From Hyphomicrobiales bacterium (GTDB lineage: Bacteria > Pseudomonadota > Alphaproteobacteria > Rhizobiales > Beijerinckiaceae): a stretch of DNA of 64,000 bases. Positions 15,106-62,280 of this stretch are shown here, piece after piece. The position numbers and the translations under genes are program-made. The notes beneath the pieces are model-generated. The model was not told where the DNA came from. It ran no database searches and saw only the letters and a list, made by a program, of their open reading frames with translations. Each line of letters begins with the position of its first letter. Within the stretch, counting starts at the first letter, position 1. Location: positions 12-64,011 of the forward strand of contig JAQGJX010000089.1 of assembly GCA_028290405.1 (NCBI GenBank), in the 5' to 3' direction.

Positions 15106-15855
15106 TCACGCCGGGGAGCGATAGCTCAGGATCGCGCCCGTCGGGACGTCGAGGATCTTGCCGGTTTCGGTCCAGTCGGCCGAGCAGGCGGCCAGGATCC
15201 GGGGCGCGATCTCCTCGGGCGTCGGCAGGCTCAACGGGTCCTCCCCGGGCATCAACTGGGCGCGCATGCGCGTGCGCACATGGCCGGGCCGAACGAGCGT
15301 CACGCGCACGCTGGAGGTGTTGCGGGTCTCGGCCGCATAGGTGCGGGCCAGCGTATCAAGCGCGCTCTTGGAGACCGCGTAGGGGCCCATGTAGGGCGCA
15401 AGGTCCGCCTTGCTGCCAGAACCCGAGGTAATGAACACCGCGCGCCCGGCAGGCGAGGTCCGCAACGGAAGGTCGAGCGAGCGGATGAGCCGGTAATTGG
15501 CGGTGACGTTGACGGCCATCACCTCGTCCCATTGCGGCGGATCGAGATGGGCCAGCGGGGTGACGGGGCCGAGCAGGCCGCCGTTGCCCAGCAGCACGTC
15601 CAGGCGGCCCCAGCGCTCGTGAATGGCGAGACCCAGCCGGTCGAGGCCCGCGAAGTCCTTCAGGTCGCACGGAACGAGAGTCGCTTCGCCGCCCATGGAG
15701 CGGATCTCGTCGTCCAGCGCCTCGAGCCCGCCCTGGGTGCGCGCCAGCGCGATCACGTGCGCGCCCTGGCGCGCAAGCTCCACCGCGCAGGCGCGGCCGA
15801 TGCCGCGCGAGGCGCCCGTCACGAGGGCGATGCGGTTCTCGAAGGGAAGGGACAT
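15106..15855 (-). CDS. Short-chain dehydrogenase/reductase (YciK-like)
   Basis: VTGASRGIG and YAVSK motifs. Confidence 0.9.
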   Translation of the reverse strand: MSLPFENRIALVTGASRGIGRACAVELARQGAHVIALARTQGGLEALDDEIRSMGGEATLVPCDLKDFAGLDRLGLAIHERWGRLDVLLGNGGLLGPVTPLAHLDPPQWDEVMAVNVTANYRLIRSLDLPLRTSPAGRAVFITSGSGSKADLAPYMGPYAVSKSALDTLARTYAAETRNTSSVRVTLVRPGHVRTRMRAQLMPGEDPLSLPTPEEIAPRILAACSADWTETGKILDVPTGAILSYRSPA

Positions 15856-54827: not shown

Positions 54828-56918
54828 TTAGCCGGTCCTGCGCCGCATCCAGACGTGGTTGTCATGGAACGCCGCGCCGCCGAACGGGGCGGGCGAATCC
54901 GCGCCCGTGAGCGTGTTGACGCCGCGTCCGTCCTCGAACGCGTCGTTGGGCCAGATGCCTTCGGACACCAGCACGCCGCGCTGCACGCCCTCGAACAGCT
55001 TCGCGTGCAGGCGCACCTCGCCGCGTGCGTTGCCCAGGATCACCCGGTCGCCGTCCTCGACGCCGAGCCGCGCCGCGTCCGCAGGATGCACCAGCACGCA
55101 GGGGCGCCCCTCGCGGGCCCGCGACGAGGGCGTTTCGTTGAACGATGAGTTGAGGAACGAGCGCGCCGGGGAGGTCGCGAGCCGGAACGGATGCGCCTCG
55201 TCGGCCTCCTCAAGGACGTTCCAGTGGTCGGGCAGGCTCGGCATGTCGCGCCAGGGTCCCGACAACTGCCCCTTGAACGGCGTCTGCGCCCAGTCCGCCC
55301 GGAACCGGTACTTGCCGTCCGGCCACGCGAATCCGTCGAGGAAATGCGCGGTGCGGAAGTCCACCTGCACGTCGCGCCAGTTCGCCCTCGCGAGTTCGTC
55401 GTAAGTGCCAAAGCCGATCTCGCGCAGCGTCGTGTCGATCAGCGCCCGCGGGCTCATCTCGAATCCGGGATGGCGCGCGCCCACGCGCGGCGCGAGTTCG
55501 CAGATCACCTCATGGTTGCTGCGGCATTCGCCGGGCGGCTCGACGAGCTTTTGCGCCAGCTCCACATAGGAATGGCCGCCGCCCGTGTAGACGTCGTCAT
55601 GCTCGAGGAACATGGTCGCGGGCAGCACGATGTCGGCCATGCGCGCCGTCTCGGTCATGAACTGCTCGTGCACGACCGTGAACAGGTCCTCGCGCGCAAA
55701 GCCCCGCCGCACACGCGTCTGGTCCGGCGCCACCGACATCGGGTTGGTGTTCTGGATCAGCATGGCGTGAACCTGAGGCCCGCCCTGCAACGCCTCCGCG
55801 TCGCCGCACAGCACGGCGCCGACGCGCGACTGGTCGAGCGCGCGAACGCTCGGGTCCATCACGTCCGAGCCGTCGATCATCGGCTGGCGCCACTTGTAAA
55901 TAGCGCCATTGTTGTGGAACGCGCCGCCCCCCTCATGCCGCCATGCGCCCGTCACCGCCGCGATGCTGGTGGCGGCGTGCATGTTGACCGAGCCGTTGCG
56001 CTGGCGCGAGAAGCCATAGCCCAGGCGGAAGAACGTGCGCTTGGTGTTTCCAACGAGATGCGCGAACGCCTCGATGTCCGAGACGGAAAGCCCTGTGACG
56101 CCGGCCGCCCATTCGGGCGTGCGCGTCGCCAGGTGCGCCTCAAGTTCATGCGGCGCGTCTGTGTATTTTTCCAGATAATCCCAGTCCGCCAGCCCGTCGC
56201 GAAACAGCACATGCATGACCGCGCAGGCGAGAGCGCCGTCGGTTCCCGGCCGCAAGCACAGGGCCATGTCGGCCTGCTTCATGGTGTCGTTGCGATAGAT
56301 GTCGATGACGACGAGCTTGGCGCCGCGCTCCTTGCGGGCCCGCAGCGCGTGGGTCATCACGTTCACCTGCGTGGCGACGGCGTTCGTGCCCCATATGACG
56401 ACGCAGTCCGATTGCGCCATCTCGCGCGGATCAGGCCCCGCGAGGCGCCCCGTGCCGGCGATAAAGCCCGGCCAGGCGAGGTTGATGCAGATGGTGCCGT
56501 TGTGGCGCGAGTATTTCTTGGCGTGCGCCAGACGGTTGATCCCGTCGCGCATGACCTTGCCCATCGTGCCCGCGTAATAGTTCAGCCACACGCTCTGGGC
56601 GCCGTGGACGCGCTCCGCGTCGAGAAACCGGCGCGCGATCTCCTCGAACGCCTCGTCCCACGCAATGCGTTCGAACGCCCCGGAGCCCTTGGGGCCGGTG
56701 CGCCGCAGCGGATGCAGCAGCCGGTCTGGATGGTGGATGCGCTCGGAATAGCGCGCGACCTTGGCGCATACGACGCCGGCCGTGTAGCTCTGGTCCTGCG
56801 CGCCATGGATGCGCCCGATGGTCCGGCCGTCGATCACCTCCACGTCCAGCGCGCAGGCCGACGGGCAATCGTGCGGGCACACGGAGGGGCGATGTTCGAT
56901 GCGGGGCGCGACGGTCAT
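54828..56918 (-). CDS. Cytoplasmic molybdopterin-dependent oxidoreductase (DMSO reductase superfamily, unknown substrate)
   Basis: CPHDCPSAC..VCAKV Fe-S motif, RLLHPLRRTG, IAWDEA, DIVLPAT..E and a C-terminal molydopterin-binding domain; no Tat signal. Confidence 0.9.
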   Translation of the reverse strand: MTVAPRIEHRPSVCPHDCPSACALDVEVIDGRTIGRIHGAQDQSYTAGVVCAKVARYSERIHHPDRLLHPLRRTGPKGSGAFERIAWDEAFEEIARRFLDAERVHGAQSVWLNYYAGTMGKVMRDGINRLAHAKKYSRHNGTICINLAWPGFIAGTGRLAGPDPREMAQSDCVVIWGTNAVATQVNVMTHALRARKERGAKLVVIDIYRNDTMKQADMALCLRPGTDGALACAVMHVLFRDGLADWDYLEKYTDAPHELEAHLATRTPEWAAGVTGLSVSDIEAFAHLVGNTKRTFFRLGYGFSRQRNGSVNMHAATSIAAVTGAWRHEGGGAFHNNGAIYKWRQPMIDGSDVMDPSVRALDQSRVGAVLCGDAEALQGGPQVHAMLIQNTNPMSVAPDQTRVRRGFAREDLFTVVHEQFMTETARMADIVLPATMFLEHDDVYTGGGHSYVELAQKLVEPPGECRSNHEVICELAPRVGARHPGFEMSPRALIDTTLREIGFGTYDELARANWRDVQVDFRTAHFLDGFAWPDGKYRFRADWAQTPFKGQLSGPWRDMPSLPDHWNVLEEADEAHPFRLATSPARSFLNSSFNETPSSRAREGRPCVLVHPADAARLGVEDGDRVILGNARGEVRLHAKLFEGVQRGVLVSEGIWPNDAFEDGRGVNTLTGADSPAPFGGAAFHDNHVWMRRRTG

Positions 56919-56983
56919 AAAAAATCTCCGCTCGCATCATGGCGAGCGGAGACGAAAGAGCAACCCGTAAAGGCGTAGGGCGA

Positions 56984-57406
56984 TCAGCCGACGATTTCGT
57001 TGCCGGCGAACCACTGGGCGATTTCGATCGCGGCGGTCTCGGGGGCGTCGGAGCCATGGGCGGAGTTTTCGCCGACCGAGAGGGCGAATTCCTTGCGGAT
57101 CGTGCCCGCGTCGGCGTTCGCCGGGTTGGTGGCGCCCATCACGTCGCGATAGGTCTTGATGGCGTTCTCGCCTTCCAGAACCTGCACGACCACGGGGCCG
57201 GCGGTCATCGTCTCGACCAGTTCGCCAAAGAAGGGACGCTCGCGGTGCACGCCGTAGAACGTCTCGGCCTGCTCGCGGGTCATGCGCACGCGCTTCTGGG
57301 CGACGATGCGCAGGCCGGCCTTCTCGATCACGGCGTTGATCGCGCCGGTGAGGTTGCGGCGGGTCGCGTCGGGCTTGATGATGGAGAAAGTGCGTTCGAT
57401 CGCCAT
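56984..57406 (-). CDS. ndk: Nucleoside diphosphate kinase
   Basis: [32 protein letters not shown] and NSAHGSD. Confidence 0.97.
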
Positions 57407-57532
57407 GGCGTTGAATCTCGTAGCTGCTGGGGTGAAGAGAGGGGCGCTTATAGCTGCGGCTGCTGCGGCGCACAAGGCGGCCTTGAGCGAGAGGCGTCCG
57501 GCGCCCGGCCGCCTGCGTCATTGTCTGCGCCT

Positions 57533-57566
57533 ATTGAACCACGCTATATTGATCGTCCCCAACGAT
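57533..57566. promoter_or_regulatory. Candidate OxyR autoregulatory site (ATTG-N7-CTAT and ATCG-N7-CGAT)
   Basis: Two LysR T-N11-A type dyads ending 10 nt before the oxyR ATG. Confidence 0.5.
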
Positions 57567-57576
57567 CAGGCGCGCC

Positions 57577-58494
57577 ATGAACCTGCGAGACCTCCAGTAC
57601 ATCATCGCCGTCGCCGAGCATGGCCACTTCGGCCATGCGGCCACTGCCTGCAACATCAGCCAGCCGACGTTGAGCGGGCAGATTTCCAAGCTCGAGCAGG
57701 AGCTTGGCGTGGACATCTTCCACCGCGTCGGCCGCGGCGTCCGCCTGACGGAGGCGGGGGAGCAGATCGTCGCCCACGCCCGCCGCGCCGTGTCGGCCTC
57801 CCAGGACATCGTCGAGACCGCCCGCGCCAACCGCGATCCGCTCAGCGGGCGGCTGCGGCTGGGTGTCATCCCCACCATCGCTCCGTATCTCATGCCCTAC
57901 GTGCTGCCGCTGGCGGCCGAGAAGCTGCCCGATGCGCCGCTGGTGCTGGTGGAGGACATGACGGCGCATCTGGTGCCGCTGGTGGCGGAGGGCAAGCTCG
58001 ACGCCGCGCTCATCGCCACCCAGGAGGACAATCCCGAGATCGCCTCCATCGATCTTTACGACGAGCCCTTCTGGGTGGCGTTGCCCGCCAACCATGCGCT
58101 GTGCGCCCGCAAGGAGATCGCGGCCAGCGAGATCGACCCCAAGGCGCTGCTGCTGCTGACGGACGGCCATTGCCTGCGCGACCAGGCGGTGGACCTTTGC
58201 AACCATCCGCAGATCGGCGAGGGCGTGATGGCGGACATGCGCGCCACGAGCCTCGAAACGCTGCTGCACCTGGTGGCCGCCGGCCACGGCGTCACCCTGC
58301 TGCCGCAGCTGGCGGTGGAATGCGGCAGGGCGGAGACGGACCGGCTGGCGACGCGGCCGTTGGCGGGCGCCCACGCGTCGCGCCGCGTGCGCCTCATCCA
58401 CCGCCGCCGCAGCCCGCGCGCCAAGGCGCTCATCGAGCTGGCGCGCATCATCCGCGCGTCCCTGCCGGCGAGCGTGCGCACCCTGAAATCCTGA
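57577..58494 (+). CDS. oxyR: Hydrogen peroxide-inducible LysR regulator OxyR
   Basis: LysR HTH, GVIPTIAPYL, the redox cysteine pair GHCLRDQAVDLC (C-x8-C) and RATSLETL. Confidence 0.92.
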   Translation: MNLRDLQYIIAVAEHGHFGHAATACNISQPTLSGQISKLEQELGVDIFHRVGRGVRLTEAGEQIVAHARRAVSASQDIVETARANRDPLSGRLRLGVIPTIAPYLMPYVLPLAAEKLPDAPLVLVEDMTAHLVPLVAEGKLDAALIATQEDNPEIASIDLYDEPFWVALPANHALCARKEIAASEIDPKALLLLTDGHCLRDQAVDLCNHPQIGEGVMADMRATSLETLLHLVAAGHGVTLLPQLAVECGRAETDRLATRPLAGAHASRRVRLIHRRRSPRAKALIELARIIRASLPASVRTLKS

Positions 58495-58500
58495 TGCATC

Positions 58501-58537
58501 ATCGGGCATCCCTATGGGTTTCATCGGGCGCGTCGAT
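58501..58537. promoter_or_regulatory. OxyR operator ATCG-N7-CTAT-N7-ATCG-N7-CGAT
   Basis: Exact 4 x (4+7) spacing of the ATAG-N7-CTAT-N7-ATAG-N7-CTAT consensus, upstream of rubrerythrin. Confidence 0.75.
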
Positions 58538-58555
58538 CACCGGGCGCGCATTGAT

Positions 58556-58569
58556 TTGAATTAGATCAA
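58556..58569. promoter_or_regulatory. FixK/FNR box TTGA-N6-TCAA
   Basis: TTGA attaga TCAA; a perfect TTGACA follows at 58598-58603. Confidence 0.6.
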
Positions 58570-58705
58570 AAACAAACTGGGCCGCACTGCGCCCGCATTG
58601 ACAAAGCGTGGCCGGGATCATCTCTAAGTTGCGAACGCCCAGTGGTCCGACCCGGCCCGGGACGCGTACCTTGAGCGTTGCAACGATCTTTTCAGGAGGT
58701 GAGCC

Positions 58706-59125
58706 ATGGCTCTCAAGGGCAGCAAGACCGAAGACAATCTGAAGGAAGCGTTTGCGGGCGAGTCGCAGGCCAATCGCCGCTACCTGTATTTCGCCCAGAA
58801 GGCTGACGTCGAAGGCTTCAACGACGTCGCCTCCGTGTTTCGCTCCACCGCCGAAGGCGAGACCGGCCATGCGCACGGCCACCTCGAGTATCTCGAAGAG
58901 TGCGGCGATCCGGCCACCGGCCTGCCCATGGGCAAGACGGACCTGAACCTGCAGTCGGCCATCGCGGGCGAAACCCACGAGTACACCGACATGTATCCCG
59001 GCATGGCCCGCACGGCTCGCGAAGAGGGCTTCGACGAGATCGGCGACTGGTTCGAAACGCTGGCGAAAGCCGAGCGTTCGCACGCCGGCCGCTTCCAGCG
59101 CGCCCTGAACGAGATGGCCAGCTAA
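58706..59125 (+). CDS. rbr: Rubrerythrin (short, lacking the rubredoxin domain)
   Basis: [30 protein letters not shown] and AERSHA di-iron motifs; no C-terminal CxxC. Confidence 0.93.
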
Positions 59126-59234
59126 GCGGCCCATTGGTTGCAATTCTGGCCGGCCGGGGCGTCAAGCTCCGGCCGCGCCTGCTTCAAGCCAGGGCCCATC
59201 CGCGCGCCGATGGCGGCAAGGAACAGAGGACAGC

Positions 59235-60578
59235 ATGAGAGAGGGTAGTCTTGAAGCTCCGATCCGGCATCCGCTGGACTGGCACAACCCCGATTTCTAT
59301 GACGAGGCGAAGCTCGACGCCGAGATGCATCGCGTCTTCGACATCTGTCACGGCTGCCGCCGCTGCTTCAACCTGTGCGACTCGTTCCCGCAATTGTTCG
59401 ACCTCATCGACGAGTCGAAGACCGGCGAGCTCGACAGCGTCGACAGCAAGGATTTCAAGCCCGTCGTGGACGCGTGCACGCTTTGCGACATGTGCTTCAT
59501 GACCAAGTGCCCCTACGTGCCCCCGCACGAGTTCGGGCTCGACTTTCCGCACCTGATGCTGCGCTACCGCGCCGTCGAGGCGAAGAAGGGCGAGACCACG
59601 TTCATCGACGGGCAACTGGCGCAGACAGACCGCAACGGCATGATCGCCGGGGTCGTCGCGCCGCTCGCCAACTGGGCGTCGAGCACGAAGAACAAGTTCA
59701 CCCGCGGCGTGCTGGAGAAGGTGGCGGATCTCGATCCGCGCGCCGAGCTGCCCGAATACGCCCGCACGCCGCTGACCAGCCAGGCGAAGGCCACGACGCC
59801 GGAAGTGAACCGCGAGGCGCCGGGGTTCGGCCGCAAGGCGGTGATCTACGCCACGTGCTTCAACAACTACAACGACCCGTCCGTGGGCCTTGCGGCGCGC
59901 GCGGTGCTGGCCCGCAACGGGGTCGAGACCGAAGTGGTGCATCCCCATTGCTGCGGCATGCCGATGCTGGAGCAGGGCAAGCTCGAGGAAGTCGCCAAGG
60001 CCGCCAAGACCGTGGCGGACGCGCTCGTGCCGTGGATCGAGAAGGGCTACGACGTCATCGCCCTCGTGCCCTCGTGCTCGCTGATGATGAAGTTCGAATG
60101 GCCGCTGATCGTCACCGACGACAAGAACGTGAAGACGCTGGCGCAGAACACGTTCGACATCAGCGAATACATCGTGGACATCGCCAAGAAGAACGGCCTC
60201 GCGCCGGGCATGACGCCCGTGCCGGGCGGCGTCTCGCTGCACATCGCGTGTCACTCGCGCGCGCAGAACATGGGCCAGAAGGCCACGGAGATGTTGAAGC
60301 TGCTGCCTGAGGCTGACGTGCACGTGGTCGAGCGTTGCTCGGGCCACGGCGGCGCCTGGGGCTTCAAGAAAGGCAATTTCGACCTCGCCATGAAGGTGGG
60401 CCGACCGGTGGCGAAAGCCACGCGCGACGCCGGCAAGGCCTATGTCACGTCCGAGTGCCCGCTGGCTGGCGTGCACATCGCCCAGGGCATGGACGCGCAG
60501 AAGAGCGACAAGCCGAAACCTGCGCTCGTGAAGCATCCGATCCAGATCTTCGCGCGTAGCTACGGCATCGAAGTCTGA
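59235..60578 (+). CDS. Fe-S oxidoreductase (GlpC/HdrD-like, CCG domains)
   Basis: CHGCRRCFNLC, CTLCDMCFMTKC, HCCGMP and CSGHGG. Confidence 0.9.
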   Translation: MREGSLEAPIRHPLDWHNPDFYDEAKLDAEMHRVFDICHGCRRCFNLCDSFPQLFDLIDESKTGELDSVDSKDFKPVVDACTLCDMCFMTKCPYVPPHEFGLDFPHLMLRYRAVEAKKGETTFIDGQLAQTDRNGMIAGVVAPLANWASSTKNKFTRGVLEKVADLDPRAELPEYARTPLTSQAKATTPEVNREAPGFGRKAVIYATCFNNYNDPSVGLAARAVLARNGVETEVVHPHCCGMPMLEQGKLEEVAKAAKTVADALVPWIEKGYDVIALVPSCSLMMKFEWPLIVTDDKNVKTLAQNTFDISEYIVDIAKKNGLAPGMTPVPGGVSLHIACHSRAQNMGQKATEMLKLLPEADVHVVERCSGHGGAWGFKKGNFDLAMKVGRPVAKATRDAGKAYVTSECPLAGVHIAQGMDAQKSDKPKPALVKHPIQIFARSYGIEV

Positions 60579-60621
60579 AATGCGCGTGAGCGCTTTTCGC
60601 AAGCCAGAGAACGGGAATACG

Positions 60622-61215
60622 ATGATGGCCAATCGACACGAGATCACCGCTGCCGACATCATGCCGCTTCCGGACTACATGAAGGTGCGCAACGAAACGC
60701 GCAAGAAAATGGCCGCCCTGAAGCGCGATCGCCGCGTGGACGTGGGCCCGCACATCACGTTCTACTTCGAAAGCTGGGACACGATGTGGATGCAGGTGCA
60801 GGAAATGCTCTACATCGAAAAGGGCGGCGAAGAGCAGATGCACGACGAACTGGCGGCCTATAATCCGCTGGTGCCCAAGGGTCGCGAGCTCTGCGCCACG
60901 TTCATGATCGAGATCGACGATCCCGATCGCCGCAAGCGCATCCTGGGCCGCCTTGGCGGCATCGAGGAAACGACGTTCATGACCGTGAACGGCGAGCGCA
61001 TCGCCGGGCAGGCGGAAGAGGACACCGACCGCACGAGCGCGGAAGGCAAGGCCTCGTCGGTGCAGTTCGTGCACTACAACTTCACGCCTGCGCAGATCGC
61101 AGCCTTCAAGACGCCGGGCGCCCAGGTCGTGGTGGGCGTGTCGCACGAAAACTACAACCACATGTCCGTGCTGCCGGACAACGTGCGCGCCGCGCTGGCG
61201 GCGGATTTCGACTAG
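60622..61215 (+). CDS. DUF3501 family protein
   Basis: FYFES..T.W.QVQEMLYIEKGG, ELAAYNPLVP..ELCATFMIE and ASSVQFV; third gene of the rubrerythrin cluster. Confidence 0.88.
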   Translation: MMANRHEITAADIMPLPDYMKVRNETRKKMAALKRDRRVDVGPHITFYFESWDTMWMQVQEMLYIEKGGEEQMHDELAAYNPLVPKGRELCATFMIEIDDPDRRKRILGRLGGIEETTFMTVNGERIAGQAEEDTDRTSAEGKASSVQFVHYNFTPAQIAAFKTPGAQVVVGVSHENYNHMSVLPDNVRAALAADFD

Positions 61216-61276
61216 CTCGACTCAAGGGCGCTCCTTCCCCGGTAAGGCGCGCCGTCCTGGCCGCTAAGGCGATCAT

Positions 61277-61335
61277 CCACGGCAGGCCACGCGCTTCATG
61301 GCCTGCCGTGGGTCCCGGCCTTGGCCGGGATGACG
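61277..61335. repeat. CGTC-tagged REP-like element with an adjacent 13-bp hairpin
   Basis: Minus strand CGTCA-TCCCGGCC-AA-GGCCGGGA-CCCA plus ccacggcaggcca-N9-tggcctgccgtgg, between convergent genes. Confidence 0.75.
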
Positions 61336-61365
61336 CTCCGTATCGTTGAGTTTCGCGAACCCCTC

Positions 61366-62280
61366 TCACCGCTTCCCCACCCCGCGCGCCGCCCCGGCCC
61401 CCAGGGCGAACGCCGAGTACAGCACAACGCCCAGCAGCGCGGGCGTGGACCAGTCGATCTTCGGGTCCACCAGTTCCAACGCGAACACCGCCACCGGCCC
61501 AAGGGCGCGCAGGACCTGCGCGGTGAGCGCGGGGGTGAGCGAGATGCCGACCTGGAGCGCGTAGAGCGGCAGCGCGATCAGCGGGGCGGCGACCAGCGCC
61601 AGCCACGCCCAATCCCAGGGGCCAGCGAGTCCGGTCGCCCGGCCGCCGCTCAGCGCCCCGAGGGCCATGGCGACGATCAGCAGGTAGCGCACGGCCGTCA
61701 CTGCGTTGGCGCTGAGCCCCAGATCGTTCAGCCGTTTCGCAAGCAGGTGGCTGAGCGTGATGGAGACCCCGCTGACGATCAGCGCGCAAAGGCCGAAGAC
61801 GGCGTCGCCCACCGTGAAGTCGAGACGCCCCGAGCGCCCGTCCAGCACTACCAACCACAGGAAACCCAGCGTAGCCGCAAGCCCTGCGTAACAGAGGCTT
61901 TCCACCCGGTTCCAGTTCTGCGGACCAGCGATCTTGAAGCCCGCGAGCCCCAGCGCGACCACCGTGAGCGGCCCAAGGCCGCTGTGCAGCGCGTTCACCA
62001 CGGAAGGCTGGATGGCTTTCAGGCCGAAGAAATACGACGTCCACGCCAGCGCGGTCGTCACGTTCATGGCCGCCACCACGCGCCAGTGCTGGCGCAGCCG
62101 CGCCATGCCGGCCCGGTCGCGCCAGAGGCCCAACGCGCCGAACGCCAGCGCCATGGGCAGGAAGGCGGCCACGATCGTGGCGAACACGTCCACGCTGCGG
62201 AAGACGTGCGCGAGGTAGACGTCGCGCAGCGCTTGCGAGACCACGAAGGCGAGGATGAGGCCGGGGCCGAGGAGGGACAT
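61366..62280 (-). CDS. DMT/EamA-like membrane protein
   Basis: About 10 hydrophobic helices and NVTTALAWTSYFFGLKAIQPSVVN; start MSLLGP at 62280. Confidence 0.7.
   Translation of the reverse strand: MSLLGPGLILAFVVSQALRDVYLAHVFRSVDVFATIVAAFLPMALAFGALGLWRDRAGMARLRQHWRVVAAMNVTTALAWTSYFFGLKAIQPSVVNALHSGLGPLTVVALGLAGFKIAGPQNWNRVESLCYAGLAATLGFLWLVVLDGRSGRLDFTVGDAVFGLCALIVSGVSITLSHLLAKRLNDLGLSANAVTAVRYLLIVAMALGALSGGRATGLAGPWDWAWLALVAAPLIALPLYALQVGISLTPALTAQVLRALGPVAVFALELVDPKIDWSTPALLGVVLYSAFALGAGAARGVGKR

Follow-up and report, generated by a model that had tools for sequence, protein, structure and literature searches.

The 64-kb stretch of DNA analysed here (the window; 64,000 nt, positions 12 to 64,011 of contig JAQGJX010000089.1, assembly GCA_028290405.1, from a Hyphomicrobiales bacterium of the family Beijerinckiaceae) contains an oxyR gene (57577-58494, + strand) followed, on the same strand, by three genes encoding an aerobic-type rubrerythrin without a rubredoxin domain (rbr, 58706-59125), a CCG Fe-S oxidoreductase (hereafter RFO, 59235-60578), and a DUF3501 protein (60580-61215). 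As a whole, these genes and their regulatory sites are likely to represent a peroxide-defence locus that is controlled by OxyR and conserved throughout the genus. Judged by sequence comparison, the locus is a genuine and well-conserved member, predicted to be OxyR regulated, of a known gene cluster. The four gene identities given in an earlier note on this DNA (two-Cys OxyR, rubredoxin-less rubrerythrin, CCG Fe-S oxidoreductase, and DUF3501 protein) and their coordinates are correct, and the domains and order of the last three genes, hereafter the trio, agree with those of the aerobic-type rubrerythrin cluster reported by Cardenas et al. 2016 (PMC5114695); that the trio is a known aerobic-type cluster had also been stated in that note. 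Genome-wide counts given below refer to the 4.07-Mb assembly, which is 99.65% complete, and window-level counts to the 64-kb window, with shuffled sequences as the chance baseline. The genus sample comprises 36 same-genus genomes, 20 of which carry rbr.

The principal evidence is a compact OxyR operator of the rbr operon (O2; ATCG-N7-CTAT-N7-ATCG-N7-CGAT, 58501-58537, + strand), which begins 6 nt past the oxyR TGA. O2 is the sole match in the window at <=1 mismatch (0.06 expected), one of two sites scoring >=13/16 in the genome, and the only perfect compact four-half-site match genome-wide when scanned with the pattern ATNG-N7-CNAT-N7-ATNG-N7-CNAT. It was also the top match (28.1 bits, compared with 21.0 bits for the next locus) to a matrix built from the sites of relatives, from which O2 itself had been excluded. 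The second-best match, at 21.0 bits, is located on the minus strand of the window at approximately 15494-15534, possibly in coding sequence. Among same-genus rbr loci, 18 carry a four-half-site match of 11-15/16 positioned 178-226 nt before the rbr ATG. Two genomes (G004 and G016, loci L090 and L095) have a non-adjacent oxyR, and the O2-type site stays with rbr in both; three relatives with a 78-79% identical oxyR and no rbr have no O2 3' of oxyR (best match, 9/16). Because the site is kept with rbr when oxyR is not adjacent and is lost where rbr is missing, O2 belongs to rbr and not to oxyR. It is, on this comparative evidence, a genuine and conserved predicted OxyR operator of rbr. The spacing, the four half-sites, and the distance of 6 nt from the stop had been described accurately in the earlier note, and the site is in addition unique and genus-conserved.

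The OxyR protein is the only one encoded in the genome; the sole other LysR-type match is 28% identical to it. It contains a LysR helix-turn-helix domain (PF00126, 83 bits) and a LysR substrate-binding domain (PF03466, 136.8 bits), and its best NCBIfam match is OxyR (NF008361, 259.2 bits, with a cut-off of 329). The top matches in a PDB search were all OxyR proteins, with both redox cysteines aligned: the segment GHCLRDQAVDLC aligns with the stretch DGHCLHDQIVDLC of Corynebacterium glutamicum OxyR (6g1b), and the cysteines are equivalent to C199 and C208 of Escherichia coli OxyR.

An extended OxyR operator (O1; ATTG-N7-CTAT-N17-ATCG-N7-CGAT, 57520-57566, + strand) was identified over the oxyR promoter. 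No other perfect match with a gap of 17 is present in the genome. Of 26 oxyR upstream regions compared at genus level, 25 match the same pattern at 12/12, the gap being 15-17 and the distance to the ATG 49-66 nt, and the pattern is also kept in relatives without rbr. A promoter scan placed a candidate oxyR promoter (TTGTCT-N18-TATATT) at 57521-57550 on the + strand, and the central spacer of O1 holds a TAnnnT -10 that is conserved across the genus. A perfect extended operator (ATCG-N7-CAAT-N16-ATCG-N7-CAAT; G000 C44:2464-2509, L223) precedes ahpC-ahpD as well, and a near-identical copy of this site at the end of another contig (C126:23810-23855) may be due either to a further copy of ahpC or to overlap in the assembly. 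In total, four perfect four-half-site matches with gaps of 7, 16, or 17 are present genome-wide, namely those of rbr (gap 7), oxyR (gap 17), and ahpCD (gap 16, two copies); shuffled genomes gave 0-1 such matches. Given a single OxyR and these four perfect matches, the predicted regulon consists of oxyR, ahpCD, and the rbr operon, and within it the compact geometry is found at rbr alone. The extended-spacing operators at oxyR and ahpCD rule out an OxyR that is dedicated to rbr only.

In E. coli, the compact geometry corresponds to the oxidised form of OxyR, and a geometry with one extra helical turn corresponds to the reduced form. In the mechanism that we favour, the single two-Cys OxyR would be transcribed from its own promoter, with O1 lying over that promoter. 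Since the dyads of O1 are one extra helical turn apart, which is the geometry of reduced OxyR, OxyR probably represses its own gene. O2, with the compact geometry of oxidised OxyR, would serve rbr. A candidate -10 element (TTAGAT/TAGATC, 58561-58567, + strand) is located at +24 to +30 after O2. In other lineages, the -10 hexamer of OxyR-type rbr promoters (TATAGT, TATCAT, TATGCT, etc.) starts 23-25 nt after the operator, and in one sub-clade within the genus this -10 position is occupied by TACTTT or TATAAG. The distance of about 24 nt between O2 and the -10-like element resembles that in other bacteria, and H2O2-oxidised OxyR most likely activates an OxyR-dependent promoter there (P1), with a predicted start near 58573.

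Another element of the oxyR-rbr intergenic region is TTGACA, a -35-like hexamer at 58598-58603 (+ strand), which had been pointed out in the earlier note and proved to be conserved in the genus comparison. In 14 of 18 genus loci, TTGAC follows O2 at a distance of 58-62 nt (10 of these have 59-60 nt); in the remaining loci, it is found at 72 nt in two and at 51 nt in one and is absent from one. The spacer between O2 and TTGAC (58538-58603) is fixed in length and diverges in sequence across the genus. This hexamer, 60 nt further on, may belong to a second promoter (P2), the -10 of which is poorly defined in the window. In the rbr promoters of some relatives, palindromes of the TTGGAAT-A-ATTCCAA type were observed, either after TTGAC (L091, L092, L093, and L096) or before it (L090 and L095), and similar sequences occur elsewhere in the genome of the window (C214:30252 and C156:23665).

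The transcript of the rbr operon would read, in order, rbr, a hairpin, RFO, and DUF3501, and this order of the three genes is the same in the large majority of 80 related loci. Rbr is a protein of 139 aa that contains PF02915 only and a single Cys. It matched the Rbr structures of Burkholderia pseudomallei (4di0 and 9onm) at 243 bits, with a close resemblance by eye on the alignment, and would act as a di-iron H2O2 reductase. RFO, assigned by the Pfam CCG family and its cysteine motifs, contains two Cys4 iron-sulfur motifs and two CCG-type domains and is GlpC-like, yet falls under the NCBIfam cut-offs. No sequence relative of RFO was found in the PDB by sequence search, and no transmembrane segment is present (maximum 19-residue hydropathy, 1.4), which gives no support to the membrane link proposed for this protein in the earlier note. 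Its motifs and its strict co-occurrence with the other members of the cluster suggest RFO as the most plausible source of the electrons that the missing rubredoxin domain would otherwise deliver, and a role as electron donor is a reasonable inference. The DUF3501 protein (PF12007, 210.9 bits; the true start is perhaps Met14/15) has 3fjv as its PDB relative by sequence. A fold search with the AlphaFold model (pLDDT 90) gave a single match at E <= 0.001, which was again 3fjv, an uncharacterised structure of its own family, and yielded no functional lead; the role of adaptor previously proposed for this protein with an orphan fold was a guess. In the literature on the cluster, we found no published reconstitution of an Rbr peroxidase activity dependent on RFO and DUF3501.

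A GC-rich hairpin, either an attenuator or a transcript-stabilising stem, is located between rbr and RFO (59148-59179, + strand). Like O1 and the ahpCD operator, it had not been mentioned in the earlier note. Most relatives in the genus have a hairpin at the corresponding site, as a rule followed by a T tract, which is weak in the window; acting as a partial terminator or as a stabiliser, it probably adjusts the level of Rbr relative to that of RFO/DUF3501. With such a hairpin after rbr, the Rbr transcript is expected to be more abundant than that of RFO/DUF3501. A second hairpin, with a perfect 11-bp stem, was read directly from the sequence 3' of the DUF3501 gene (61278-61310), where an EamA-family gene converges on the trio from the right. 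An Rfam search of 56900-61400 gave zero matches.

The same-direction arrangement of oxyR immediately 5' of rbr, which the earlier note had singled out, is real but not special: it is the norm in the genus, being found in most of the 20 rbr-bearing genomes, and it is likewise seen in several Gammaproteobacteria, Chromatiaceae among them. Three relatives (G001, G026, and G028; loci L234, L235, and L236) carry oxyR and O1 and no rbr trio. In two of these, a gene for an ABC-F ATPase lies directly 3' of oxyR; in the window, the corresponding gene is located beyond the trio and the EamA gene. The position of the ABC-F gene directly after oxyR indicates that the trio (together with the EamA gene) behaves like a segment that was inserted or deleted here. 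As for other peroxide-defence functions, the 99.65%-complete assembly yielded no match to KatG, haem catalase, or cytochrome c peroxidase, and in this respect the description of the system as catalase independent holds. However, a Mn catalase, AhpCD, and six AhpC/TSA-family proteins are encoded in the genome. The Mn catalase and the six AhpC/TSA-family proteins rule out a catalase-less organism, and since Mn catalase and AhpCD are present, the trio is one of several H2O2 scavengers.

Several observations weigh against the mechanism proposed above. A -35 cannot be recognised in P1, the -10 of which (TTAGAT/TAGATC) agrees poorly with the sigma-70 consensus. The conserved TTGACA, at a fixed 59-60 nt from O2, falls outside the P1 model. 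The score of OxyR is below the NCBIfam equivalog cut-off (259 compared with 329 bits). The pairing of operator spacing with the redox state of OxyR (extended with reduced, compact with oxidised) is carried over from the E. coli model, and the biochemistry attributed to RFO and DUF3501 is entirely inferred.

Two of the alternative explanations concern O2 itself. The operator could act at a distance on the TTGACA promoter, with its centre near -114 and with no promoter directly after it. TTGAC is the most conserved intergenic element and lies 59-60 nt from O2 despite the diverged spacer, the spacing of 72 nt in two loci amounts to about one helical turn more, and the missing -35 of P1 points in the same direction. 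However, at least eight OxyR-type rbr promoters elsewhere have a -10 at +23 to +29 and no distant TTGACA, and in the window the -10 after TTGACA is poor. The in-genus sub-clade with TACTTT or TATAAG at the -10 position of P1 also argues for a promoter directly after O2. Known OxyR sites, moreover, abut the -35 region, and action at a distance is unlikely. Alternatively, O2 could be no operator of rbr at all and instead serve oxyR from its 3' side as a terminator, a roadblock, or an autoregulatory site, as its location 6 nt past the oxyR stop might suggest. A promoter/terminator scan detected a weak terminator-like hairpin after oxyR (58528-58549, + strand) that overlaps the last half-site of O2. 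This candidate terminator was rejected: its frequency is no higher than in shuffles, and it is not apparently conserved in an alignment inspected by eye. Moreover, an O2-type site stays with rbr in L090 and L095 and is absent after oxyR genes without rbr, which makes the 3'-element explanation scarcely credible.

The remaining two explanations add a second regulator to OxyR. The earlier note had reported a FixK/FNR box and, from it, tuning by microoxia; in this explanation, OxyR (responding to peroxide) and an FNR/FixK activator (responding to low oxygen) would both act on the TTGACA promoter, the latter at the palindrome TTGAATTAGATCAA. This palindrome is indeed present at 58556-58569 and matches the consensus used for scoring (TTGAT-N4-ATCAA) at 9/10. 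The motif TTGA-N6-TCAA is rare in the genome (25 copies, compared with 6-9 in shuffles), and FnrL-like, FixK-like, and FtrB-like regulators are encoded, all under their equivalog cut-offs, one of them with a box 5' of its own gene. A transcription start about 35 nt after TTGACA would centre the box near -70.5, a plausible class I position. However, the box is conserved in none of about 28 close relatives: an exact TTGA-N6-TCAA was found in 0 of 24 genus loci, 0 of 2 close metagenome loci (OxyR identity, 79-80%; the only close loci obtained in a metagenome scan for closer relatives), and 0 of 2 further relatives, and the 19 genus-level rbr promoters that were scored all reached <=7/10. Only the left TTGA is new, the right half being part of a conserved ICE-like/-10-like element, and the motif occurs once in the window, as it does at least once in 22 of 100 shuffles of the 64 kb. 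The genes next to other intergenic TTGA-N6-TCAA boxes, i.e. those for a serralysin-type protease, MlaE/Hsp20, a Mo-hydroxylase with a c-type cytochrome, LigB with an NMT1-family protein, DUF2849, and NUDIX, include no classical low-oxygen marker. Low-oxygen control lacks comparative support because the box is unique to the window and overlaps both the decayed ICE and the candidate -10. An FNR-type regulator, if bound, would cover the -10 of P1, which would suggest repression more than tuning. Dual control by OxyR and FNR/FixK is therefore given a low probability, and tuning by microoxia, which had been deduced from a sequence match at chance level in the window, is not upheld; the low-oxygen input is probably not real. 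Most likely, to judge from the comparison with relatives, the FNR-like box is a coincidence, a strain-specific by-product of a decaying ICE (Irr box) over the -10 of P1. The remaining explanation takes the element at 58556-58576 as a working ICE that places rbr under both peroxide and iron control. Scored out of 14 against the consensus TTTAGAA-N3-TTCTAAA taken from PMC1698941, the closest relatives have ICE-like elements of 10-12/14 (the best being TTTAGAACAAATCTAAG) at exactly the same offset from O2, where the element overlaps the -10-like element at its usual distance from the OxyR site. Irr is encoded in the genome, along with Fur and Zur, a few ICE sites of 12-13/14 are present elsewhere, and Irr control of rubrerythrin has been predicted in other Alphaproteobacteria (PMC1698941). 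In a distant comparison set (rbr loci L003-L081 of other Alpha- and Gammaproteobacteria, with 250 nt 5' of rbr scanned), a TTAGA-N5-TCTAA (7-1-7) box of the ICE type precedes rbr in 52 of 81 loci and an OxyR-type site in 16, with only 3 loci having both. The copy in the window (ATTAGATCAAAAACAAA, 58560-58576), however, reaches only 8/14 (8-9/14, depending on the segment taken), a score found at more than 5000 places in the genome, and a functional ICE here is rated lower still than the FNR/FixK box. In the distant loci, the 7-1-7 palindrome was often observed right beside TTGACA, with the variants TTAGAAT-N-ATTCTAA (Irr/ICE type) in Alphaproteobacteria and TTAGACT-N-AGTCTAA in Gammaproteobacteria.

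Control of the trio by OxyR through O2 and P1 is thus the preferred reading. Beyond it, we tentatively consider, as a possibility for which the case is not yet an even one, that two further features hold jointly. One is a split of OxyR binding modes, the extended sites at oxyR and ahpCD being bound by the reduced form for repression or poising and the compact site at rbr by the oxidised form. The other is a regulator switch from Irr/ICE to OxyR, in which a vestigial ICE would have been left over the new -10.

Upstream of oxyR, the divergent gene is ndk (nucleoside-diphosphate kinase; 56984-57406, - strand), identified by NCBIfam (NF001908, 204.7 bits, with a cut-off of 155) and by tblastn against relatives, in which its reading frame is conserved. 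A 194-aa open reading frame divergent from oxyR was rejected as a wrong frame, ndk being the conserved one. A genus-conserved putative ndk promoter (TTGTGC-N17-TATAAG) is located at 57447-57475 on the - strand, and the sequence CTTATA ... GCACAAGG 5' of oxyR is kept across the genus in the upstream alignment. This promoter-like element is 45 nt from O1, and an effect of O1 on ndk is possible. Downstream of ndk, a molybdopterin oxidoreductase of 696 aa (Fdh-alpha/NasC-like) is encoded at 54828-56918 on the - strand.

The aerobic-type trio is biochemically undefined, and a single OxyR with separable operators would offer a simple genetic handle on the roles of RFO and DUF3501, one that is easier to use where KatG and haem catalase are absent. 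The presence of OxyR-type and Irr/ICE-type promoters before rbr genes that are 81-93% identical makes a tidy case of regulator replacement. The split operators and the exchange of Irr for OxyR would be noteworthy and unsurprising, and they leave the current understanding unchanged.

The locus shares with the aerobic-type rubrerythrin cluster (PMC5114695; bpss1837-1839) an identical set and order of the three genes, an Rbr without a rubredoxin domain, a DUF3501 protein with the 3fjv fold, and an RFO that is a GlpC/HdrD-like CCG protein. The B. pseudomallei orthologues, bpss1837-1839, are induced by H2O2 (PMC4175613). In contrast to that cluster, the trio is located here directly 3' of the sole oxyR and has a compact OxyR operator, whereas most Alpha- and Gammaproteobacterial copies of the trio have an Irr/ICE-type 7-1-7 box instead. 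With the Irr/ICE control of rubrerythrin (Rodionov et al. 2006, PMC1698941), the present system shares an ICE-like element, kept in the closest relatives, and an encoded Irr; the element in the window, however, has decayed to 8-9/14, and OxyR is apparently the main regulator. OxyR control of rbr has also been predicted in Rhodanobacter (bioRxiv 10.64898/2026.06.06.730518), likewise an aerobic proteobacterium, with rbr in an OxyR regulon beside ahpCF, catalase, and dps; that assignment is largely based on comparative genomics, and the gene order and dual-operator layout described here are not reported there. Compared with the E. coli-type OxyR system (ATAG-N7-CTAT-N7-ATAG-N7-CTAT), the two cysteines, the four half-sites, the 11-bp phasing, the autoregulatory site over the oxyR promoter, and the membership of ahpC in the regulon are shared. 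The differences are that KatG is absent here, that the half-sites are of the form ATyG/CnAT, that OxyR is under the NCBIfam equivalog cut-off, and that the extended (oxyR and ahpCD) and compact (rbr) operators lie at separate promoters, whereas in E. coli one oxyR-oxyS site serves for both.

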